In this document: positions 46,222 through 64,000 of the stretch, piece by piece
Position numbering within the stretch: position 1 is the first letter of the stretch
Layout: every line of letters starts with the position of its first letter
DNA from: an uncultured bacterium
GTDB lineage: Bacteria > Patescibacteriota > Minisyncoccia > UBA6257 > 2-01-FULL-56-20
DNA: 64,000 nt
Reading direction: 5' to 3'
NCBI GenBank assembly: GCA_963844965.1
Contig: CAWJQC010000004.1
Span: 41,609 to 105,608 of the forward strand
Made by a program: the position numbers and the translations under genes
The notes under the pieces: model-generated
Told to the model about the DNA's origin: nothing
The model's database searches: none
The model's input: the letters and a program-made list of their open reading frames with translations, nothing else

Positions 46222-46294
46222 GTCCCTGTAGCTCAACGGATAGAGCGTGTGGCTTCGAACCACAAGGTTGCAGGTTCAAATCCTGCCAGGGACG
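46222..46294 (+). tRNA. tRNA-Arg (anticodon TCG)
   Basis: GTCCCTGTAGCTCAACGGATAGAGCGTGTGGCTTCGAACCACAAGGTTGCAGGTTCAAATCCTGCCAGGGACG, with loop CTTCGAA. It is bracketed by the perfect inverted repeat CCCTCCCACCTTTG / CAAAGGTGGGAGGG. Confidence 0.9.
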
Positions 46295-46321
46295 CAAAGG
46301 TGGGAGGGTGAAGATATCATA

Positions 46322-46367
46322 TGTGGCTTCGAACCACAGGTTCCAGGTTCGAGTCCTGGCGAGGGCA
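46322..46367 (+). pseudogene. 3' fragment of a different tRNA-Arg(TCG) (anticodon arm to acceptor 3' strand)
   Basis: TGTGGCTTCGAACCACA is identical to the anticodon arm of the neighbouring gene. It is followed by a different T-arm (CCAGGTTCGAGTCCTGG) and acceptor strand (CGAGGGC). There is no 5' acceptor or D-arm. Confidence 0.7.
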
Positions 46368-46883: not shown

Positions 46884-48221
46884 CTATTTCTGCAAGCTCA
46901 GAATTTTATTCCTGAACGTCAACTTACTCTTGAAGCAAGATAGCAATTCGCGTTTCTCGACCGTGCTGCCCTTTTTGAGAAGATATTTTGCGTACGTTTT
47001 AAGGTCAATTTCTTTAGTGGCCGCTTTCGATCCTTCTCCCAAGACATCGTTCGCGAATTTGCGATATCGTTCCATCTCGTCTTCGAATTTCTTCTGCATC
47101 CCAATCTCACTGATATCCATCTCGTCAATGATAGCGAGAAGTTGAGCGATCAATTCCTCTTCGCGAATGTATCCGCACTTGCAATCCTTATCTTTCGAGC
47201 GTGAGCATCCATAGTACACGTACCGCGCCGTCGTTCCATCCTTGTGCGCCTTATATTTCTCGCACGCACTGATGCCCGATCCGCATAGGCCGCACGAGAT
47301 CAGTTTCGTAAACGAAAATTCCTTTATCTCCGACCTGATGACAAAATCTCGGTGCAGCTGCTCCTGTACTTTATCGAACAGCTCCCGCGAAATGATTGCT
47401 TCGTGCTTGCCGCTGTACCAGTTACCGCTCTTCAGTGGATACTCAAAGATGCCGCAGTAAAATGGATTTTTGAGGATGATATAAATATTGGATAACGAAA
47501 GCACTTTCCCATTCTTTGTTCTGAATTTGATTTCCGACTTCAGCCAATGATAAAGCTTCCGGCCCGACCATTGTTCGTCGGCGACTTTCTGGAGCATTTG
47601 CTTGATGACGGGCGCTCGCAGGGGATCAATGATAACTTCACAAGGACGGTCGGTGCTCTTCTCGTTAAGATACCCTGTCGGTGCGATAGACGGACGCAAA
47701 CCTTGTTCGCACCGCATCCGTAATCCGCGCTTCACGTTTTCCGATTTGTTATCATTCTCAAGTTTCGCTTGGCTGCACAAAATCATCAACATGAATTTCT
47801 CGCTCGGCGAGTTCGTGAATTTCTGGCTGAAGGTTCTGATCTCGATAAGTAATTTTTGATCCATCAAGTCCACCAAGCCGCCAAGGTCGCCCGCGTTGCG
47901 GCTCAAGCGATCCGGCGCCCATGTAAGGATACCGTTGAATTCGCCGGAACGAATATCAATAAGCAACTCGTTAAAAATTTTTCGCTGGCCGACAGCTTTT
48001 GCGGAATGGCTTTCCTTTCTAACTTCGGCGATCTCAAGGTTATCGCGCTCGGCGATTTTCAGCATCTCCTTTATCTGACTATCAATGGAAAGCACTTGCT
48101 GTTCCTCGCTCTCCGTACTTTTCCTCGCATAGAGGCAGTATTTTATTTTTATCGCTTCGGCCTTTGTCGCAGAAACGCCCGACTGATCCCAGCCCTTTGG
48201 TATATTTGTTATTTTCTCCAT
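46884..48221 (-). CDS. large serine recombinase (resolvase domain, recombinase domain, zinc ribbon)
   Basis: YCLYARKSTESEEQQVLSIDSQ (catalytic Ser region), LTWAPDRLSRN, later CGLCGSGISAC...YYGCSR. About 445 aa from MEKITNIPKGW. Confidence 0.85.
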   Translation of the reverse strand: MEKITNIPKGWDQSGVSATKAEAIKIKYCLYARKSTESEEQQVLSIDSQIKEMLKIAERDNLEIAEVRKESHSAKAVGQRKIFNELLIDIRSGEFNGILTWAPDRLSRNAGDLGGLVDLMDQKLLIEIRTFSQKFTNSPSEKFMLMILCSQAKLENDNKSENVKRGLRMRCEQGLRPSIAPTGYLNEKSTDRPCEVIIDPLRAPVIKQMLQKVADEQWSGRKLYHWLKSEIKFRTKNGKVLSLSNIYIILKNPFYCGIFEYPLKSGNWYSGKHEAIISRELFDKVQEQLHRDFVIRSEIKEFSFTKLISCGLCGSGISACEKYKAHKDGTTARYVYYGCSRSKDKDCKCGYIREEELIAQLLAIIDEMDISEIGMQKKFEDEMERYRKFANDVLGEGSKAATKEIDLKTYAKYLLKKGSTVEKRELLSCFKSKLTFRNKILSLQK

Positions 48222-48377
48222 ACCTAAGGGATGCCGCAACGGCGGAAGGAGTCCAGAGCATCCTTGTCGGTAACTCAAAACTCGATATCAGGCGACGAAG
48301 GGGCAAAGAAGGCAAGCAGAGTGATTTCCCCAGCCACCCTCTTTAAGACCATTTATAAACGAGCTATAATAATTCTA

Positions 48378-53623: not shown

Positions 53624-56305
53624 ATGAGTGGGATAAAAATAAATCTTTCTCTCAGCGAAATCCCAGGCATCGGCCCGCGTTTTCTGGAACGGCTGGGAAA
53701 ACTCGGCATAAAAACCGTCCGTGATCTCATTTATCATTTTCCGGCCCGCTACGAGGATTTCTCCCAGATATACAAAATTTCCGACGTTGAGCCGGGGGAA
53801 CAGGTAACAATACGTGGCGTTGTTGAAGACACCAAACTGCGGCGGACTTGGAGAAAACACATGACAATCGCCGAAGCCCTGATCCGCGACGATTCCGGAA
53901 CGATACGCGCCATCTGGTTCAACCAACCATATGTTTTGAACACTCTGCGGGTCGGGCGCACGGCGAATTTCGCAGGCAAAATATCCATATCGGACGAGGA
54001 CGAAATTTATTTGAGCCACCCGGCTTATGAAATCGTCGGCAGTCGGGAGTCGGGAACGGAGAAGCAAGAAACAAAACATACAGCGCGGCTCGTCCCCATT
54101 TATCCCGAAACGCGCGGCCTCACATCCAAGGGGTTGAGATATCTGATCCAGCCAATTCTGAAAAACAGCGAACAGCTGGAGGAATGGCTGCCGCCGGAAG
54201 TTCTGCGCGAAAATAATTTTCCCGAAATAAACCTTGCGCTCAGATCCATACACTTCCCCGAAAAAACCGAGGATGCTCTTGTCGCGAAAAAACGCTTCAC
54301 TTTTGAAAACCTGTTCCTGCTGCAACTCGCCAATCTTGAACAAAAATTGAAACTCGCGCGCGAAAAAGCGCCAGTGATCAAAACCGACATAGAACACCTG
54401 AAAAAAATGATCTCGGAACTGCCATACGAACTCACGTTTTCGCAAAAGAAATCATTGTGGGAAATCATCCAGGACCTCGCCAAAAAACAGCCGATGAACC
54501 GCCTGCTCCAGGGCGACGTGGGCTCCGGCAAGACGGTTGTCGCGGCGCTCGCCGCGGTAATTACCGCGGAAAACGGGCTGCAGACCGCGTTTATGGCGCC
54601 AACCGAGGTTCTCGCGAGACAGCATTTTGAAACATTGAAAAAATTATTCGCCGGAATTCCCTCGATCCATCAACCCGTAGTTGGGCTTCTCACGTCAAGC
54701 GAAGCAAAAATCCTCTACGCGACAGACCTTGAATCAAAAATCAAAAAACCGGAGTTGCAGGAAAAAATAAAAAACGGCGAGGTAAAAATAGCCATCGGCA
54801 CGCACGCTTTGATACAAAAAGACGTGGCGTTCGGCAATCTTGCCTTTATCATCATTGACGAACAGCATAGATTCGGCGTCTCACAACGAGCTGCGCTCGT
54901 TCGCGGACAGACGCAGAATGATAATACGCGGACAGACGCTGAACAACTACTATACGAAAAAACGACGTTTGAGATAAGAAAAAGTCTGTTTGAGGTGAGA
55001 AAACAACTGGGCCTTGGTCATAAAGAAGTGGTGTATCAGAAAGCATTGGAGGAGGAGTTCAAGAAATCCGGTGTAATATTTGAGAAAGAAAAGAAAATTC
55101 CTGTCGTTTATAACAAGAAAAAGATTGGCGTTTATCAACCGGATTTTGTCATAGATAATGAAGTAATTTTGGAACTTAAGGCTCTTCCCTTTATCGGCGG
55201 CATCGAAAAAAAACAGCTGTGGAATTATTTGAGGGGTTCGGATTACAAACTCGCGCTTATGGCAAACTTTGGACCGGAAAGATTATCCATAGAGCGGGTA
55301 GTATACGATATTGCGCGGAGTCGGCGGCTGTCAGCGTCCGGTCAGCAACTGTCCGCGCCTATCCCCCACCTCCTCTCAATGTCCGCCACGCCAATCCCAC
55401 GCACGCTCATGCTCACCGTCTTCGGCGATTTGGATATATCGCTCATCACCGAACTTCCCGCCGGCAGAAAAAATATCGTAACAAAAATAATCCCCCCACG
55501 GGGCAGGAGCGAAGCCTATGAATTCATCCGCGGCGAAGTGAGGGCCAGCCGGCAGGTTTTTGTCATCTGCCCCCGCATTGACAAACCGCAGACAGGCGCA
55601 GACCACACGCAGACAAACGCAGACAAGACACAGACAGACGCAGACAATTTTCAGCGGCTGTCTGCGTCAAGTCAGCGACTGTCCGCGTTAAGTCCACGTA
55701 AGTCCGCGTTAGTGTGGGAAGTAAGATCCGTGAAAGAAGAATTTGAAAAATTATCCAAGAAAATTTTTCCGGATTTGCGCGTCGCCATGCTCCACGGCCA
55801 GCTCAAGCCAAAAGAAAAAGCGGGTATCATGAAGGACTTCCGCAACTACAAAATAGATATTCTCGTTTCAACTTCCGTCGTGGAAGTTGGCGTGGACGTG
55901 CCGAACGCAACAATAATGATGATTGAAGGCGCCGATCGCTTCGGGCTGGCTCAGATCTACCAATTCCGCGGACGCGTGGGGCGCGGCGAACACCAATCCT
56001 ATTGCTTCCTGTTCACGGATTCGTCCGCCAAAACTACGCGCGAGCGGCTGCAGGCCGTCCTTGAAGCCAAGAACGGCTTTGAGCTCGCCGAGAAGGACCT
56101 GAAGATCCGCGGTCCCGGCGAATTCCTCGGCACGGCGCAGACCGGCTTTCCCGACACGGCGATGAGCGGCCTCATGAACCCGGAGCTCGTGAAAGCAAGC
56201 CGCGAAGCGGCGGCAAAAATCGTCCAAAAAGATCCGCTTTTCAAAAATTATCCGCTCCTGAAAACCAAATTAAACGAGTTCCGGAAGGAAATCCACTTGG
56301 AGTAG
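53624..56305 (+). CDS. recG: ATP-dependent DNA helicase RecG carrying two in-frame insertions
   Basis: Wedge/OB N-terminus; motif I GDVGSGKT; motif II [11 protein letters not shown]; motif III [9 protein letters not shown]; later [15 protein letters not shown] and QFRGRVGRG. 893 aa against ~680-700 expected. The excess is accounted for by 54908-55357 and 55589-55708. Confidence 0.92.
   Translation: [893 protein letters not shown]
54908..55357 (+). other. 450-nt in-frame insertion in recG encoding a GxxExxY-family (PD-(D/E)XK-like) domain flanked by inverted word repeats
   Basis: [87 protein letters not shown] matches the GxxExxY pattern. The flanks are cgcggacagacgcagaat..tacgcggacagacgctga and the reverse-complement-like ctgtcagcgtccg..ctgtccgcgc. 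Confidence 0.75.
55589..55708 (+). repeat. 120-nt in-frame palindromic insertion in recG (solo copy of the same word-repeat arms)
   Basis: cagacaggcgcagaccacacgcagacaaacgcagacaagacacagacagacgcagaca attttca gcggctgtctgcgtcaagtcagcgactgtccgcg. It translates as [40 protein letters not shown]. Confidence 0.7.
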
Positions 56306-56571: not shown

Positions 56572-59017
56572 CTACTGCTCCATATGACCGACAAGGGTGC
56601 ATGTATAAAAGTTACCAGTGCATTGGGATGAATTAGTAACATCCCAACAAGTTGAATAAGTCTCCAGCGCGCCACTACAAGGAGTGGTATTAGCGCATGA
56701 ACTGTTGTAGTAACGAATATAAGTCATATACTGCGGGCAGAAGTAAATCGGCGTCCCGCCTGTAACTTTAAGAGTGCCGGGAATGATGACGTTGCCGTTT
56801 GCTAGAACCTGTATAGCTGCTCCGGTTGTAGTAGCTGTACCAGTATTCGGCATACTGCCGCCAATACCGACGTTGCCGGCATAGTTGATGACTAATTTAT
56901 TTGATTCTGCCGCACTAGGATAATTTCCCACCATAAGCATGGCGCCCTGATTAACATCGCCCACATCGAGCAGCACCGCATCCGCATTGGTCGTAGCCGC
57001 GGTGCCGTAGAACGTGCCGGTATTGGTATCCCTGTTCTGCTCGAACTGGGTGCCGTAATCACCGGTGTTATACAAGAACGAATAGGTGGGATTACTAAAA
57101 TCGCTGTACATCTCAAGGCCGGGGCCGGTACCGGCAGTATTTGAATATGCATAAAATTGATAGTTGGCGGGCGCCGCCGCTCCCACCCCGATTCCGGAGG
57201 TGAATAAACCTCCTCCAGTTACCGTCAGTTTCTGGGTCGGCGCCGTATTCCCGATGCCGACGTTGCCGGAGGAATTCCAAATACCGGTGCCAGGCATCGT
57301 AACGTTGCCAGTAAAGGTCGGGCTCGCTAAAAGCGCCGCTCCGGTAACCTGCGCTACCCCGTAGTCACCAGATGCCGCCACCACGGCTCCGGTTCCGCCA
57401 AATACCGAGGTGACGCCGCCGCTCGGCCAAGCCGTGATGCAATTCGCCCCGGAGATGCAATATTGAGTGGCGTTTGCGGTAACCGTTGACGTACAGAGCG
57501 TACCCTCCGCCTGAGTTTGTGAAATACCCACCGTAGCCGCCGGAGTTGGTGGCTAATCCATAAACTCCTACGCCGTTACCTGCCGCTGACTGTCCGGCAA
57601 CCCCTACCCAGTAAGAAGCGCCGACCTGTCCGCCGAGAATCCCATTCGTTGTGGCGTTGCTATTATTTCCCGTTACCGAGCCGACCCATGATGAATTGAC
57701 GGCGCTCGTGAAACTGCCTACGCCAGCAACAACCAACGGATATGCCGGCGTCGTCGTCCCGATGCCGACGTTGCCGTTCGTGATGGAGAAATATGGACCA
57801 CCCCCCATCCCAGTGCCAAGCGCCAAATTGAGGCCATAAGATTGTGACGTCAAATCAGCGTATGTAAATGCTCCGTTGCTGGTGGTGAACTTTATCCAAT
57901 CTACGTTTGACCCGTTTGTATTGTCTAGCCGTAAGGTAGACGTACTTCCACTCTGAATATCAAGTTTTGCGACCGGCGCCGTGTTCCCGATGCCGACGTT
58001 GCCGTTGTTATTTATAAACAAGGCGGGTGACGCGCCGGATGAGTCAGAACCCTGAGTCAAAAAGGCCATTGGAGAACCGTTACTGCCGATCCGGGCCCAG
58101 TTCGCAACTGCTGCCGGTCCAAGCTGTAGCAAGGCATCGGTACCGTTAGATGTCAAGTCAAACTTGGCGAATTTTGACCCGTTCACGACATGCAACGTCG
58201 TTGCCGGCGACGCCGTCCCGATGCCGACGTTGCCGCCATATGCAAGCGTCATTATTTGGGAGTACCAACTGCTGGGGTTCTGATACCCAATCGTCAAGAC
58301 CGAATTATCTGACGCTGGTGCAAAAACATACCCATTATTACTGCCAGCCATATCGCGGAGCTTGAAGGCTCCAAAGACATCAAGTGTATTTTGTGGTGAC
58401 GGCGTCCCGATGCCGACCGAGCCCGAGAAATACCCGCCGCCGTAGACGGAGAGGGCCTGCGGCAAGTTGCTGGCGGAGGATGTGGTAACGCCCAGAGCGG
58501 AAGAAACAAACACACTGTGGGGGAACCCGTAGGGAACGCCGGAATCGGCCTCTAGAGAATTGAACACCGCGGGCGTGACATAGCCGGCGTTGACGGTCCC
58601 GTTAAAATTGCCGTGGATCGTGCCGTTCACGTCAAGCTGGTAGCCAGGCGACGCCGTCCCGATGCCGACAGAACCGTCATTGCGCACGACAAGTATGGGC
58701 GACGAATTCGGATAAAGGATCTTCAATGTGTAATTCGCGGCATCAGCGGACGAAGAAGCAACGATGAGGAGTTTGGTTTCCGGCAGAGGCGTGGGCGTAC
58801 CAACGCCCAGATTCCCAGCCGCATTAGTGCTTACCGCTCCCGAACCGAAACCGGGGGTGGGAGGAGGAGAGGCAAACGCGTAGTAGGTAGTAGGTAGTAG
58901 GTAGTAGGTAGTAGCGAGAATGACGAAAAACAAAACGTGCGGCGCAAAACTCGGACGCACACCGTAAAACTTGCGGCGGAGCTTTTGCTGTTTTTGGAAC
59001 AAATCTGCGTCCATCAT
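56572..59017 (-). CDS. large secreted tail-fibre-like repeat protein (GNVGIG repeats), split by one frameshift near 57525-57540
   Basis: About 815 aa when ORFs 57365..59017 and 56572..57531 are joined (..GGGYALYVNGY / GISQTQAEGTLCTS..). The motif NGNVGIG(T/N)(A/T)(S/A)P recurs. It has an N-terminal hydrophobic segment and a Cys-rich C-terminus. Confidence 0.6.
58880..58914. repeat. heptanucleotide tandem repeat (GTAGTAG)x5 inside the 5' coding region of the tail-fibre-like gene
   Basis: gtagtaggtagtaggtagtaggtagtaggtagtag encodes ..ATTYYLLPTTYY.. on the minus strand. An inverted partner (TACTACC x3.5) lies at 59025-59049, upstream of the ATG at 59017. Confidence 0.8.
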
Positions 59018-59186
59018 AATAATTTACTACCTACTACCTACTACCTACCGCTTTTAATTGTTTCGGGGCGACAATCTCATAGCTTTATTATATAAGAACA
59101 GGGAAAGATATGTAGAAAGGGGTGTGCATAGGCGCGAAAACTGCCCGAGCGGCGGCCGCAAATTTCCCGGCCATCCGGGATATAAA

Positions 59187-59251: not shown

Positions 59252-59959
59252 CTAGTGGCCGACGATGGGTGGAAGACCGGCCTGGTAGCGGCGGTAATTC
59301 CCCATGTACCGGTCCGCCACCTGAATATTCCGCACGCCGTACCAAACGTGAACCGTGCTAAGGTAACCGGCAAAGCCGATGCTTGCGAGACGCTCGGCCC
59401 TCACCATTCTCCTGCCCCACTTATGTCCCCCCCATTTATGCTCTGTCCAGCGAGGGATAGCCGAAGAAAAGTAGGAAAAAACGACATCGAACGCCGAGGC
59501 GCTCCCTAACACCCCAGCAATATTGCGATTGCCAAATTGGGTATATAGGGAGTCCGTCTCACGGGGGCCCTGCTGGCTAGCATAACGCAAACCGTTGCTA
59601 GCGACGTACTCTGGAATAAAGGGTGGCGTAGAGAGGGAACGGAACGTGGTTATGTTGTCAAACGCAAATGGCCCGCGCTCAACACCCCACATCCAAGCCT
59701 GTGTCCTCTCAAGCTTGCTCTGGTCCCGGTTTAACTTGCCGCCAGGCCAAGCCATAACCCTAAACACCTTATCAAAGGTTGATGGCTCAACCGGTGCCGC
59801 CGAACGCAAGGGCGAGATAGCGGGTGCGAGTGCCGGTGCAGACGCGGCGGATGCCGCCACGGGCGTTGACGCTAAGGGCAGTTCGGTAAGACCGTCTGCC
59901 GGAAACGCGCGAACCGAAATGATTGTCAAGATTGTCAACAAAAGCACCAGTCGCTTCAT
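59252..59959 (-). CDS. hypothetical secreted protein
   Basis: MKRLVLLLTILTIISVRAFPA is a signal peptide, followed by an Ala/Pro-rich linker. No family recognised. Confidence 0.5.
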   Translation of the reverse strand: MKRLVLLLTILTIISVRAFPADGLTELPLASTPVAASAASAPALAPAISPLRSAAPVEPSTFDKVFRVMAWPGGKLNRDQSKLERTQAWMWGVERGPFAFDNITTFRSLSTPPFIPEYVASNGLRYASQQGPRETDSLYTQFGNRNIAGVLGSASAFDVVFSYFSSAIPRWTEHKWGGHKWGRRMVRAERLASIGFAGYLSTVHVWYGVRNIQVADRYMGNYRRYQAGLPPIVGH

Positions 59960-60178
59960 AACGACCTCCTCAAAAAGATTTAATTTAATTGCGCAAAGCA
60001 ATTTGGCTACTCCCAAGAATAACCAAATCGCTTTGCGCAAGCAATATATTCATTTTTCAAGATACTTGCCTATCTATGCTAATTATAGCACAAATAAACA
60101 ACCTGTCAACCCCCACCTTTTTCCGAAAAGGTGGGGGTCAAGTGGCCGCGGCGGCTGACCCGCTGAAGCGACGATACC

Positions 60179-60438
60179 CTACAACTCATAAATCTCATCT
60201 CGCTTGCCTATTTTGAGTATATAAATTGCGCCATTTCTAACGTCAAATACCAACCTATAATCGCCCACGCGAAATCTGAACTCCCCGCCGCGGTTGTCAG
60301 CCAAACGCTTGGCAAACCTCAACGGATTATCCTCTGACGCATAAATGCGCATCTTCTTTGCTTTGCGATGCGCACTTGAACTTCTCTCGGCAGGGATTCC
60401 AACTGCTTAGCCGCCCGCTTGGCATAGAAAATCTTCGT
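60179..60438 (-). pseudogene. decayed copy of the RelE/ParE toxin gene
   Basis: About 97% identical by eye to 62204..62458, but the start ATG is mutated to ACG (cgt at 60436-60438) and a 5-nt insertion (ctttgctttgcg versus cttcgcg) shifts the frame. Confidence 0.7.
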
Positions 60439-60614
60439 TACAATCCCAACTTCTTAAACAGCTTATCCTGCGATATAGTTTTTTTTGCCTTGATTTCTTT
60501 TCTCGCTTCGCGGACATCCAAAATATGCGCGAGGTAGCCAAGCAGGGCGCCGAAGCGAGCATCCGTTTTCCTCAAACGCTCGTATTCTTGTTTTGGTATA
60601 GTAACCGTGGTCAT
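60438..60614 (-). CDS. antitoxin (copy 1) of the RelE/ParE pair, intact
   Basis: MTTVTIPKQEYERLRKTDARFGALLGYLAHILDVREARKEIKAKKTISQDKLFKKLGL, identical in protein to copy 2. Confidence 0.6.
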   Translation of the reverse strand: MTTVTIPKQEYERLRKTDARFGALLGYLAHILDVREARKEIKAKKTISQDKLFKKLGL

Positions 60615-60737
60615 ATAAGTGCATTATAGTAAACCGGCGGCGGATATCAACCCCCACACCAAACGAGGACTTTCCGGGTCCCGCGCCGAAGGCGCATGTC
60701 CTCGTTAGGATTCTCGATAGGAATTGCCGGTGCGACA

Positions 60738-60956
60738 TTACAACAGAGAAACAAACTGCTCCGGTGCAAGTTCGGCATCACGTAGTATTTTGCGAAGCAG
60801 AGAAACATCCACTGCCTTATAGTTCGGCACCGTTACGGATTTCTTGCCGGGACAGGACAAACGAATATGGCTGCCGCGCTGGCGAACTTCGCGATAACCG
60901 AACTTTGCCAAAGCAGAAATAATCTTGCGGCCGGAGATAACAGGCAGTTTAGACAT
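60738..60956 (-). CDS. hicA: HicA-family mRNA-interferase toxin
   Basis: 72 aa; ISGRKIISALAKFGYREVRQRGSHIRL... is the YcfA/HicA pattern. It lies downstream of a HicB-like gene. Confidence 0.7.
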   Translation of the reverse strand: MSKLPVISGRKIISALAKFGYREVRQRGSHIRLSCPGKKSVTVPNYKAVDVSLLRKILRDAELAPEQFVSLL

Positions 60957-60962
60957 GACGAG

Positions 60963-61214
60963 CTATACGGCAATTGTATGTAAGCTGATTTCCTGCGGCT
61001 TGTAATCCTGCAAAATTTGCCTGGACTGCTTTTCTTCCAAAATAAGCATTATAACCTCTCGGATATTGCGGAGCGCCTCGTCAATCGTCTTGCCCTGCGC
61101 ATAACATCCTTCAAAAACAGGGCATTCAACAACATAAAACCCGCTCTCTCCTTTTTCGGCGAGGAGCGGCAATTGCCGGCCGCGGCCTATAAATTTTGCT
61201 CTTGTTCTTGCCAT
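60963..61214 (-). CDS. hicB: HicB-family antitoxin (UPF0150 fold)
   Basis: GFYVVECPVFEGCYAQGKTIDEALRNIREVIMLILEE is the typical HicB N-domain motif. Confidence 0.7.
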   Translation of the reverse strand: MARTRAKFIGRGRQLPLLAEKGESGFYVVECPVFEGCYAQGKTIDEALRNIREVIMLILEEKQSRQILQDYKPQEISLHTIAV

Positions 61215-61493
61215 AGTGAAATAATACCACAACCCTTTAGGCGGTCAAGTGAAATTGGTAGCCAAAATCGCCCTGCCACACTAAAACCCCTTTAAATTCT
61301 TCCAGCAAGCAAACTGCCCGCGCTTTTCCGCGCGGGCTTTTTTTAAATCCCCGCTGAATACCCAGCCGAGACGTGGCGGAGACGAAACAGTGAGATATCT
61401 TTCTTTCCTCGCTTCGCAAGAAATCTTGCCGTTCCTCCGCGAGCCAATATCTACGGCCCCCGGCTGGAGGGATGAAATGAAATGGACGCTCAA

Positions 61494-61688
61494 CTATTTC
61501 TGTTTAATCTCTCTAATACCGAGGTCCCGGCAGATTTTCTTTGCCAAAAATTCATTGATTTCGCTATGGCGGGGCACCGTAGACGAACGTCTGACTTTGG
61601 GGTTAAAAAAGACGCTGTGCTTGGCGCCTTCCCGAACAAAAACACACCCCTCATGCTCAATGTGGCAAATTAAAACAACTCGCTTCAT
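61494..61688 (-). CDS. hicA: HicA-family toxin (second pair)
   Basis: 64 aa; REGAKHSVFFNPKVRRSSTVPRHSEINEFLAKKICRDLGI matches the HicA pattern (GSHxxf......tvPrH.eI...l...I.k.lgi). Confidence 0.65.
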   Translation of the reverse strand: MKRVVLICHIEHEGCVFVREGAKHSVFFNPKVRRSSTVPRHSEINEFLAKKICRDLGIREIKQK

Positions 61689-61691
61689 TCA

Positions 61692-61916
61692 TCAAACTGT
61701 AAGCAGCTGCCGCGTCAACTTCTGTTTGCCGGCCTCGGCATCAGCCAGCGCCCGGTTGGTTTCCAAAATTAGCCGAAGCGCTTCTTTAAGATTTTCTTTT
61801 ACTTCCTTCACGCTTTTCCCTTGAGTATTTACCCCGGGCACTTCCTCTATCCAGCCGACATACCATTTACCGCTTTTTTTAAACACGGCTGTAAATTTGT
61901 ATTTCATGACTGCCAT
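61692..61916 (-). CDS. hicB: HicB-family antitoxin (second pair)
   Basis: MKYKFTAVFKKSGKWYVGWIEEVPGVNTQGKSVKEVKENLKEALRLILE. Confidence 0.65.
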   Translation of the reverse strand: MAVMKYKFTAVFKKSGKWYVGWIEEVPGVNTQGKSVKEVKENLKEALRLILETNRALADAEAGKQKLTRQLLTV

Positions 61917-62203
61917 ACATTTAAGATAATCCCAAAGCATGTAGCTGTCAACTCCTCTCAACTCCCGAGAAAACCCAGATGGCGAGCTTCTCCCTGCCTC
62001 GATAGGGTAGAAAAACAACTCAAACAGCCCAACGAAATTCGTTGGGCTGGATTTTTTTAACCAATGGCGTCACCCGCCGTTGAATTCCTTAATATCTTTT
62101 GGCGAACACCGTTTAAACTACCTGTCAACCCCCACCTTTTTTCCGAAAAGGCGGGGGTCAAGCGGCCGCGGCGGCTGACCCGCTGAGCTGAAGCGACGAT
62201 ACC

Positions 62204-62458
62204 CTACAACTCATAAATCTCATCTCGCTTGCCTATTTTGAGTATATAAATTGCGCCATTTCTAACGTCAAATACCAACCTATAATCGCCCACGCGAAAT
62301 CTGAACTCCCCGCCGCGGTTATCAGCCAAACGCTTGGCAAACCTCAACGGATTATCCTCTGACGCATAAAAGCGCATCTTCTTCGCGATGCGCATTTGAA
62401 CTTCTCTCGGCAGGGATTCCAACCGCTTAGCCGCCCGCTTGGCATAGAAAATCTTCAT
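62204..62458 (-). CDS. RelE/ParE-family toxin (intact copy)
   Basis: 84 aa; ...GGEFRFRVGDYRLVFDVRNGAIYILKIGKRDEIYEL is the typical RelE/ParE C-terminal pattern. Its ATG overlaps the antitoxin stop (TAATG). Confidence 0.75.
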   Translation of the reverse strand: MKIFYAKRAAKRLESLPREVQMRIAKKMRFYASEDNPLRFAKRLADNRGGEFRFRVGDYRLVFDVRNGAIYILKIGKRDEIYEL

Positions 62459-62634
62459 TACAATCCCAACTTCTTAAACAGCTTATCCTGCGATATAGTT
62501 TTTTTTGCCTTGATTTCTTTTCTCGCTTCGCGGACATCCAAAATATGCGCGAGGTAGCCAAGCAGGGCGCCGAAGCGAGCATCCGTTTTCCTCAAACGCT
62601 CGTATTCTTGTTTTGGTATAGTAACCGTGGTCAT
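62458..62634 (-). CDS. antitoxin (copy 2) of the RelE/ParE pair
   Basis: 58 aa, the same sequence as copy 1, translationally coupled to the toxin. Confidence 0.6.
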   Translation of the reverse strand: MTTVTIPKQEYERLRKTDARFGALLGYLAHILDVREARKEIKAKKTISQDKLFKKLGL

Positions 62635-62678
62635 ATTAAGTGCATTATAGCAAACCGGCGGCGGATGTCAACCCCCAC

Positions 62679-62738
62679 ACCAAACGAGGACGCGCGCCTT
62701 CGGCGCAGGACCCGGAAAGTCCTCGTTTGGTGTGGGGG
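62679..62738. repeat. 20-bp perfect-stem hairpin (CCCCCACACCAAACGAGGAC ... GTCCTCGTTTGGTGTGGGGG)
   Basis: A perfect inverted repeat around a 28-nt loop. The loop is present in the opposite orientation in the copy-1 region (60671-60697). Confidence 0.8.
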
Positions 62739-62946
62739 TAAATTATGCCGAAAAAGCCGGAAGGAAAGATGCGATCTATGTTTCTCCCGCAAGAATACCC
62801 CCGCCGCAGGCGGGGGATGAATTGCGGTTCGAGAAACATAAACCCCGCCGATGGCGGGGTGAACTACCACCTAACATGCTGCATGTGCTAAGTATTTCGT
62901 GCGCAGCACGGCAGTTGAGATACCACCGCTGTGAGGCGGTGGTAGT

Positions 62947-64000
62947 TCATTTCAGAAGAGCGTCAACTTTTTCTTGGAGCGCGGCGTTCTGCGCCTGAAG
63001 AGCGCTGATCTCTTGTTGCTGCTCCTTGATGGATTCTATCATCGGCGCGATAAGCCCAGTATAATCCAGACCAAGGGTTCCGCTCGCGTCAGTTTCCACC
63101 AACTGCGGGAAAACCGTCTGTACATTCTGCGCGGTTAAACCGAGCTGCTCTCCACTGCCCATCAGTTTTGTATCTTTCCATTCAAAGGAAACCGGCGTCA
63201 GTAACTCAAGCTCCGCAAGCGAACCCGACAGTGGAACTATATTCTTCTTCAAACGCTCGTCGGAGCTATTTATCCACTGCCCAGCATTGTTTGTATACTC
63301 GCCGTGGGCTCCCTGAAAGTCATACGTACTGCCGGAACCATAGACGCCGATTGCAGCAGTTGAAAACACCCCATACCCTGCGGGATTACCGAAGTATCCA
63401 GCGGAACCGTTCGCGCCCGCGGTATCCGAATATCCTTCCACCCCAACCCCAGTACCAGCGTTGTAGCCATAGACGGCGGGAAGACCATTACCAGTACCGT
63501 AGCCATAGACCCCATACCCAGTCGCACCAGCAGTGCCATAGACACCATACATAGAGCCGGTGCCATAAATCCCTGCCCCAGCTTGCCCGGCGCCACCGAC
63601 GCTTAATGTTGACGCCGGTGCCGTCGTCCCGATGCCGACGTTGCCGTTCGTGATGGAGAAATATGGACCACCCCCCATCCCAGTGCCAAGCGCCAAATTG
63701 AGGCCATAAGATTGTGACGTCAAATCAGCGTATGTAAATGCTCCGTTGCTGGTGGTGAACTTTATCCAATCTACGTTTGACCCGTTTGTTTTGTCTAGCC
63801 GTAAGGTAGACGTACTTCCACTCTGAATATCAAGTTTTGCGACCGGCGCCGTGTTCCCGATGCCGACGTTGCCGTTCGTGATGGAGAAATATGGACCACC
63901 CCCCATCCCAGTGCCAAGCGCCAAATTGAGGCCATAAGATTGTGACGTCAAATCAGCGTATGTAAATGCTCCGTTGCTGGTGGTGAACTTTATCCAATCT
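62947..64000 (-). CDS. tail-fibre-like repeat protein with a C-terminal intramolecular chaperone (Peptidase_S74 / endosialidase-chaperone) domain; N-terminus beyond the right window edge
   Basis: The C-terminus reads SSDERLKKNIVPLSGSLAELELLTPVSFEWKD...LGLTAQNVQTVFPQLV...LDYTGLIAPMIESIKEQQQEISALQAQNAAL, the S74 chaperone domain plus coiled coil. Upstream are 76-aa tandem repeats containing GNVGIG. Confidence 0.75.
   Translation of the reverse strand, partial: DWIKFTTSNGAFTYADLTSQSYGLNLALGTGMGGGPYFSITNGNVGIGNTAPVAKLDIQSGSTSTLRLDKTNGSNVDWIKFTTSNGAFTYADLTSQSYGLNLALGTGMGGGPYFSITNGNVGIGTTAPASTLSVGGAGQAGAGIYGTGSMYGVYGTAGATGYGVYGYGTGNGLPAVYGYNAGTGVGVEGYSDTAGANGSAGYFGNPAGYGVFSTAAIGVYGSGSTYDFQGAHGEYTNNAGQWINSSDERLKKNIVPLSGSLAELELLTPVSFEWKDTKLMGSGEQLGLTAQNVQTVFPQLVETDASGTLGLDYTGLIAPMIESIKEQQQEISALQAQNAALQEKVDALLK
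63628..64000. repeat. 228-bp (76-codon) tandem coding repeat, at least 1.6 copies in the window
   Basis: cccgatgccgacgttgccgttcgtgatggagaaatatggacc... restarts at 63628 and at 63856 and is near-identical. The same ~255 bp block occurs at 57752-58006 in the paralog. Confidence 0.85.

Follow-up and report, generated by a model that had tools for sequence, protein, structure and literature searches.

The closest described relatives of the module considered here are the toxin-antitoxin (TA) modules of type II that belong to the RelBE type (PF05016), which include proteins from Thermus (2khe), M. tuberculosis (Rv2866/RelE2, 3g5o) and M. jannaschii (RelE3, 3bpq). The module occurs twice, as direct repeats on either side of two HicAB-type operons, in a 64,000-nucleotide stretch of DNA from an uncultured bacterium of the Patescibacteriota (contig CAWJQC010000004.1, positions 41,609 to 105,608), hereafter the window. 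Similar to RelBE, the module encodes a small toxin and an antitoxin, the antitoxin gene comes first, and the two genes overlap by 1 nt. In contrast to RelBE, its antitoxin matches no Pfam family or solved structure by sequence and has no recognisable DNA-binding domain in a predicted model, and the module family was found only in Patescibacteria in the searches made. The operons between the repeats resemble HicAB systems in forming two adjacent pairs, each with a HicA_toxin protein above the gathering score and a HicB-like partner, and in the conserved histidine context read from the HicA sequences (GSH in HicA-1, KHS in HicA-2). They differ in gene order, which in this cluster is hicB then hicA. 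Unlike canonical autoregulating HicB, the antitoxins (83 and 74 amino acids) consist of the N-terminal HicB/UPF0150 domain only, with no C-terminal DNA-binding domain. Short HicB/UPF0150 forms are known, and a short length is compatible with membership of the wider family.

TA arrays, such as those in the cassettes of the Vibrio superintegron, stabilise chromosomal segments against deletion. The cluster in the window is similar in that several TA operons with their own promoters are packed together, and in that the hic genes could be looped out between the direct repeats, a deletion that would be selected against because it would set the HicA toxins free. It differs in having no integron integrase and no shared attC-like site; a large serine recombinase, at a distance of 12 kb, is the sole recombinase seen. 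The possibility of an integron-like cassette array was rejected, as the hairpins between the operons are unrelated in sequence and there is no tyrosine recombinase among the large neighbouring open reading frames (ORFs) scanned. Orphan antitoxins that are remnants of degrading TA loci have been documented in Klebsiella (Horesh et al. 2020, PMC7192599). Similar to these orphans, the left module in the window has an intact antitoxin beside a disabled toxin in its original context, as do about one third of the related loci described below; in contrast to them, the complete module is present a second time, intact, at a distance of 2 kb, and the left antitoxin is therefore no orphan functionally. 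A role for orphan antitoxins in anti-addiction requires a matching toxin on the invading element (PMC7354431).

The locus is probably the product of a recent segmental duplication within a Patescibacteria TA cluster, followed by toxin-first decay of one copy. The cluster comprises four type II TA operons on the minus strand, each apparently with its own near-consensus sigma-70 promoter and hairpin. A segment of about 610 bp with a whole operon (a helical 58-amino-acid antitoxin, then an 84-amino-acid RelE-type toxin) would have been duplicated recently, and the two copies would have ended up either side of the two hicBA operons. The toxin would then have broken in the copy downstream of the hic genes through loss of its start, a 5-nt slippage duplication and the substitution F30I. 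The left antitoxin would have stayed intact. Being identical to the antitoxin paired with the surviving toxin, it could only raise the amount of that antidote, and its putative promoter is slightly weaker. The left antitoxin is presumably expressed. This is an ordinary, well-known decay route, and the current understanding of TA systems is unchanged by it. The locus is of interest as a clean, datable example of TA decay after duplication, in which the toxin went first and the antitoxin was kept to the base, and as it comes from a group whose TA biology is almost unstudied. The features of the two repeat copies (A-left and A-right, each an A unit) are as follows.

60096-60709, unstranded: A-left, the left repeat copy (MAFFT alignment, BLAST, difference table)
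60106-60141, minus strand: 16-bp hairpin that follows the dead toxin and whose 3' arm enters the -35 box of a 235-amino-acid gene (fold -28.9 kcal/mol, z -5.0)
60179-60438, minus strand: RelE/ParE-family toxin pseudogene with ACG start, frameshift and F30I; only a 57-amino-acid C-terminal ORF is left (60179-60352)
60438-60614, minus strand: antitoxin, left copy, 58 amino acids, intact; no difference from the right copy in 177 nt
60623-60650, minus strand: A-left promoter, 11/12 consensus (TTGATA -35); TG extension lost, spacing to ATG 1 nt shorter
60650-60709, unstranded: upstream hairpin remnant, left copy; proximal arm intact, distal arm cut after about 12 nt (fold z -1.3)
62115-62730, unstranded: A-right, the right repeat copy (MAFFT alignment, BLAST, difference table)
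62125-62161, minus strand: hairpin downstream of the toxin, right copy (fold -28.5 kcal/mol, z -4.3)
62204-62458, minus strand: intact RelE/ParE-family toxin, 84 amino acids (Pfam ParE_toxin 1.4e-8, above gathering score)
62458-62634, minus strand: antitoxin, right copy, 58 amino acids (ORF, profile search, AlphaFold)
62644-62671, minus strand: A-right promoter, 12/12 consensus including a TG extension, its end 9 nt upstream of the antitoxin ATG
62671-62739, unstranded: complete upstream hairpin, right copy; perfect 21-bp stem and 27-nt loop (inverted repeat I8; fold -50.3 kcal/mol, z -8.7)

The promoters are matches to a sigma-70-type consensus and, like the hairpins, are putative in function. 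Each A unit is made up of the 16-bp hairpin, the toxin gene, the antitoxin gene, the near-consensus promoter and the second, larger hairpin, and the two hicB-hicA pairs sit between A-left and A-right. The units are direct repeats with a spacing of 2,020 bp. BLAST aligned 60095-60670 with 62114-62691 at 96.1% identity over 583 columns, the MAFFT alignment contains 11 substitutions and 4 indel events (1, 5, 5 and 1 nt) over 582 columns, and homology continues to about 60709/62730, within the upstream hairpin. A preliminary description of this DNA had placed near-identical repeats of about 606 bp at 60101-60706 and 62120-62727; with the copies aligned and their differences counted, these coordinates are right to within about 5 nt, and the content it gave (terminator hairpin, toxin, antitoxin and upstream hairpin) is correct for both copies. 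The 5-nt indel specific to the right copy is a GCTGA-GCTGA duplication in the 3' untranslated part.

The upstream hairpin differs between the copies, and the complete right one reaches about 9 nt past the duplicated segment. The 27-nt hairpin loop is inverted between the copies (60671-60697 versus 62692-62718), with 24 of 27 nt matching in reverse complement; the corresponding inverted repeat between the copies (I1) spans 60 nt at 93%, and the 21-nt proximal arm is identical. The inverted loop coincides precisely with the edge of the duplicated segment, which suggests template switching at the hairpin. Four occurrences of the 11-mer TCAACCCCCAC are present in the window (0.03 expected), only at both ends of each A unit (60106-60116, 60647-60657, 62125-62135 and 62668-62678). 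Its minus-strand reading, GTGGGGGTTGA, forms the 3' arm of a hairpin leading directly into a -35 box, and its presence at both module ends indicates that terminator hairpin and next promoter are fused alike at each end.

The toxin identity proposed in the preliminary description, RelE/ParE, is supported by the Pfam match to the right copy, which scores 35.7 bits against PF05016 (cut-off 23) and covers profile positions 1-89 of 89. In the right copy the toxin ATG overlaps the antitoxin stop by 1 nt (TAATG). A profile built from the toxin and 13 homologues matched solved structures of RelE type only (2khe, Rv2866 3g5o, RelE3 3bpq and RelE 9g12), placing the toxin as RelE-like within the RelE/ParE superfamily. 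The residues R53, R55, R60, R78 and Y82 are invariant across the toxin homologues. Searches returned 66 toxin homologues, labelled Patescibacteria or without label and including toxins of 60-73% identity (P0002-P0010), and the 23 genome loci seeded with the toxin all come from Patescibacteria metagenome-assembled genomes. An exact-protein look-up of the toxin gave no match, and an NCBIfam scan of the seven island proteins gave no hit.

The left toxin copy is dead beside an intact antitoxin, as had been described, and both of the lesions already noted are seen in the alignment of the copies. The start codon at 60436-60438 is ACG where the right copy has ATG. Five extra nucleotides (60356-60360), a tandem pentamer duplication that reads GCAAA-GCAAA on the minus strand, shift the frame. 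The substitution F30I falls at a column that is invariant in 14 homologues. These lesions were polarised against the right copy and ten outgroup proteins. The right toxin has one derived change, at a variable site (Q12R), and the remaining differences are two synonymous changes and a M/V22 difference that is not polarisable. The remnant matches PF05016 over profile positions 41-89 only. The 57-amino-acid C-terminal ORF was considered as a working toxin and is unlikely to be one, as the N-terminal third of the fold is missing from it and no ribosome-binding site is evident.

The 58-amino-acid antitoxin is unchanged between the copies, as the preliminary description held, both in protein and in all 177 coding nucleotides. 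All 15 difference events fall in the 405 nt outside the antitoxin and none in its 177-nt coding sequence (Fisher p = 0.008), and the longest identical run, 178 nt (60438-60615), matches the antitoxin coding sequence to within 1-2 nt at both ends. The chance of finding no antitoxin differences is 0.001-0.008 if both copies evolve freely. These results suggest, without proving, constraint on the left antitoxin.

For the antitoxin, no Pfam, NCBIfam or PDB-sequence match was obtained, including in a profile search against PDB sequences and Pfam, and a single-sequence homology search returned just three proteins, owing to the word index of the search tool. The family was found via the genomic context of the toxin homologues and then by profile search, which yielded at least 155 sequence clusters; nearly all of these bear the name 'hypothetical', and a Pfam domain is present in none. 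It is Patescibacteria-wide, with a conserved C-terminal ISQEKLFKKLGL motif. In the AlphaFold model (58 sequences, pLDDT 92), residues 8-42 form one long helix, a short helix follows at the C-terminus, and a DNA-binding domain is not recognisable; a Foldseek search with this model gave two non-significant hits only, both antitoxins (ParD 6xrw_D and RelB1 9g12_C). The family lies directly upstream of the toxin in 20 of the 23 genome loci (in divergent form in L020 and L013), and in the metagenome loci it adjoins all intact toxins. This sizeable family, with no Pfam model and no solved structure, is a by-product that may be more useful than the duplication itself.

A survey of the family shows that toxin-first decay is recurrent. 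The toxin neighbouring the antitoxin was scored in 41 antitoxin-seeded metagenome loci, in every one of which the antitoxin ORF was intact where the contig end did not cut it. The toxin is full length in 26 of the 41, and in the other 15, which represent about 10 lineages, it is truncated, frameshifted or absent with room on the contig. The converse, an intact toxin without an upstream antitoxin-like ORF, was not found among the 23 toxin-seeded genome loci. About one third of the sampled loci have lost the toxin and none the antitoxin alone; as a natural, if small, record of which gene decays first, the loci are a second by-product that may be more useful than the duplication. In two cases (L033 and L032, L046 and L051) an orphan antitoxin has the same sequence as the antitoxin of an intact pair, indicating that those toxin losses are recent. 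The ratio of non-synonymous to synonymous change (pN/pS), a rough Nei-Gojobori count over the last 55 antitoxin codons with small counts, is 0.07-0.28 between intact pairs, 0.04-0.08 for two orphan-versus-intact pairs and 0.46-0.83 for several orphan-orphan pairs. The picture is one of frequent, mostly recent toxin loss followed by relaxation, which appears to fit better than long-term maintenance of orphans.

Independent assembly data bear on whether the two copies are real. The Logan unitig L001 (run ERR10755942, 1,812 nt), the sole match in an exact-protein look-up of the antitoxin, is 100% identical to 60405-62216 of the window. It starts in A-right, with the GCTGA duplication, crosses both hic operons and ends in A-left, with the inverted loop, the TTGATA promoter and the ACG codon. 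Both inner junctions are thus present in an independent assembly, with copy-specific variants on either side of the hic block, which argues against an assembly duplication. With regard to polarity, in a distant relative (L040/L041) a GIY-YIG gene comes after the same RelE-type pair, and homologues of hicB-1 (72%) and hicA-1 (65%) come next; this order of RelE pair and then hicBA-1 indicates that the order predates the duplication. Because the right upstream hairpin is complete and the left one cut, and because of the gene order in L040/L041, the right copy would appear to be the original and A-left derived.

Local repeats of the module also occur in two unrelated groundwater Patescibacteria contigs, where the repeats are 1.8-2.0 kb apart. 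In L030 (1-405 and 1966-2370), direct repeats of the module contain two intact pairs at 91% identity. In L034 (1879-2265 and 3662-4111), direct repeats at 98% identity contain two orphan antitoxins and lie around a 319-amino-acid GNVGIG-repeat gene; these repeats adjoin a 551-amino-acid fibre-like gene, and one copy carries a fragment of the neighbouring cysteine desulfurase gene. Fibre-like GNVGIG-repeat genes were found near the module in only 5 of 64 related loci, too few for a link.

Some findings weigh against a recent duplication followed by decay. The unitig L001 may come from the window's own sample, in which case it represents an independent assembly and not an independent population. 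With only the left copy free to change, 177 nt would still show no differences with a probability of 0.04-0.09. At its left edge, A-left makes up a perfect 12/12 promoter together with a flanking -10, and this edge looks native, not newly pasted. This boundary could reflect a junction at a pre-existing similar -35, or both outer boundaries could be native, as in the single-crossover insertion of a circle bearing an A unit. A related and improbable reading treats the module as portable homology: small circles carrying other genes would enter and leave the chromosome by single crossover, and the antitoxin would be selected as making the exchange survivable. It is suggested by the occurrence of module or antitoxin repeats around unrelated cargo in three unrelated contigs (the window, L030 and L034), and by the native look of both outer boundaries in the window, one of which has a full hairpin and the opposite one a full promoter. 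It is very improbable that the repeat copies are strain variants of one locus that were stitched in twice. The window does come from a metagenome-assembled contig (216,488 bp), and the preliminary description had named an assembly duplication as what would undo its proposal. The copies, however, differ by 15 events and an inverted hairpin loop, in L001 the hic block is bordered left and right by A sequence that has the variants of a different copy at either end, and similar local duplications are present in L030 and L034.

The other alternatives concern why the left antitoxin is unchanged. The preliminary description took it for an orphan anti-addiction antitoxin, that is, a stand-alone gene selected against a related toxin from a plasmid, phage or other mobile element, a role named for orphan antitoxins in reviews (PMC7354431, PMC7192599). 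Its coding sequence is perfectly conserved where the surroundings have changed, orphan antitoxins are frequent in the family, the duplicated orphan antitoxin of L034 is intact in both copies, and L058/L059 differ from L060 by 11 synonymous and 2 non-synonymous changes, all of which would fit selection of this kind. This proposal is nevertheless unlikely and was not upheld. The right copy, 2 kb away and with an intact toxin, provides an identical antitoxin from a stronger promoter, and the left copy, whose promoter has two changes from consensus, adds dose and not specificity. No toxin relative was found in IMG/VR viral contigs, a plasmid search gave only generic RelE/ParE matches below 40% identity, and phage records gave no antitoxin match; all three are weak negatives, as Patescibacteria mobile elements are poorly sampled. 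The raised pN/pS of the orphan-orphan pairs relative to intact pairs also argues against long-term selection on older orphans. Alternatively, a recent gene conversion tract between the copies could have erased antitoxin differences without selection. Copies 2 kb apart with long identical runs are good substrates, and the neighbouring fibre-like genes share 263-286 nt at 95-99%, hinting at active conversion. The identical run, however, has its first position 1 nt past the changed start codon of the toxin and extends to an indel 1-2 nt upstream of the antitoxin ATG, almost exactly the coding sequence. Since an unselected tract matching gene boundaries in this way would be a coincidence, gene conversion is considered improbable, and duplication with subsequent toxin-first decay is retained as the preferred explanation.

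The copies share identical runs of 178 and 134 nt, which are plausibly long enough, in principle, for homologous recombination. If the crossover fell in the antitoxin, the single remaining unit would have the dead toxin; if it fell in the 3' half of the toxin, an intact pair would remain. Both outcomes would remove the two hicBA operons, which should free the HicA toxins and select against the deletion. Reads across a circle junction would be uninformative, because the A/B and B/A junctions of an excised circle (A-B, one A unit with the intervening block) are also those of the chromosome. The hic operons that would be lost have the following features.

60738-60956, minus strand: hicA-1 toxin, 72 amino acids (Pfam HicA_toxin 6.4e-15, 55.5 bits, cut-off 27)
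60963-61214, minus strand: hicB-1 antitoxin, 83 amino acids, N-terminal HicB-like domain only (Pfam HicB_lk_antitox 4.8e-7, 30.4 bits, cut-off 27)
61221-61248, minus strand: hicBA-1 promoter (TTGACC-16-TGnTATTAT), ending 6 nt before the ATG
61316-61337, unstranded: GC-rich hairpin separating the hic operons, flanked by an A-run at one end and a T-run at the opposite end and terminator-like in either direction
61494-61688, minus strand: hicA-2 toxin, 64 amino acids (Pfam HicA_toxin 1.7e-8, 34.9 bits, cut-off 27)
61692-61916, minus strand: hicB-2-like antitoxin, 74 amino acids (Pfam UPF0150, HicB-like, only; 7.2e-6, 26.3 bits, just under the 27.3 cut-off)
61923-61951, minus strand: hicBA-2 promoter (TTGACA-17-TATCTT), ending 6 nt before the ATG
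62025-62049, unstranded: 11-bp hairpin, terminator-like on both strands (sequence and fold)

The presence of two hicB-hicA pairs between the repeats agrees with the preliminary description. Both HicA proteins and HicB-1 pass the Pfam threshold; HicB-2, which is weakly similar to HicB-1, falls just under it. Because the promoters end so close to the start codons, the transcripts of the cluster are probably leaderless. The 'TGTCAAC' motifs on the plus strand were considered as recombination sites and rejected, as they correspond to the -35 box TTGACA of the minus-strand promoters.

The cluster is part of a bacterial chromosome segment, as the window contains RNase P RNA and five tRNA genes. All genes across 59.2-64.0 kb of the window are on the minus strand, and the order of transcription is a Peptidase_S74 fibre-like gene, three short hairpins, A-right, hicB-2/hicA-2, hicB-1/hicA-1, A-left, the 235-amino-acid gene and a 550-amino-acid ORF. 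The neighbouring features are given below.

57365-59017, minus strand: 550-amino-acid fibre-like ORF with GNVGIG repeats and no Pfam hit, beyond the 235-amino-acid gene
59252-59959, minus strand: 235-amino-acid gene with no family match, which borders the cluster first on the left
60082-60109, minus strand: candidate promoter of the downstream 235-amino-acid gene, 12/12 consensus match (TTGACA-16-TGnTATAAT)
62947 to beyond 64000, minus strand: fibre-like gene with Peptidase_S74 (Pfam), the right-hand neighbour of the cluster

It had been proposed that the island sits between two tail-fibre-like genes. The Peptidase_S74 gene is indeed the neighbour on the right; on the left the 235-amino-acid gene intervenes, and the fibre-like ORF beyond it has no Pfam hit. 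The promoter of the 235-amino-acid gene has its -35 within A-left and its -10 outside, placing the repeat boundary in the spacer; A-right has the same -35 in its sequence and no -10.

Three GC-rich hairpins lie in a row (62798-62816, 62842-62860 and 62921-62944) between the fibre-like gene and the large A-right hairpin. Counting the latter, four consecutive hairpins occur within 270 nt, and the region 62740-62946 contains no convincing ORF. The row may represent stacked terminators or scars of lost cassettes. Near the start of the 550-amino-acid ORF, perfect inverted repeats of a 7-nt unit (GGTAGTA / TACTACC) are found at 58883-58913 and 59025-59048, with arms of 24-31 nt about 111 nt apart. 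They bracket the start codon, one arm lying upstream and the other in the coding sequence, where it encodes LLPTTYY repeats, and they could sequester the start region of the mRNA or act as an invertible or slippage-prone switch. The fibre-like genes flanking the cluster share blocks of 158-286 nt at 95-99% identity (57721-58006, 63591-63876 and 63843-64000) on top of a more diverged GNVGIG repeat, which points to recent gene conversion or duplication among surface-protein paralogues.

Further from the cluster, a RecG helicase ORF (53624-56305, 893 amino acids) contains a PD-(D/E)XK nuclease domain (PDDEXK_3, residues 447-558, 8.5e-28) between its DEAD and Helicase_C domains. A tRNA-Arg(TCG) gene at 46222-46295 is followed, less than 30 nt on, by a partial second tRNA-Arg copy comprising the 3' two-thirds (about 46323-46365; Rfam 30.2 bits). 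The large serine recombinase gene (46884-48278), 12 kb from the cluster, comes after the tRNA-Arg gene and its partial copy, and this region looks like the edge or scar of an integrated element.

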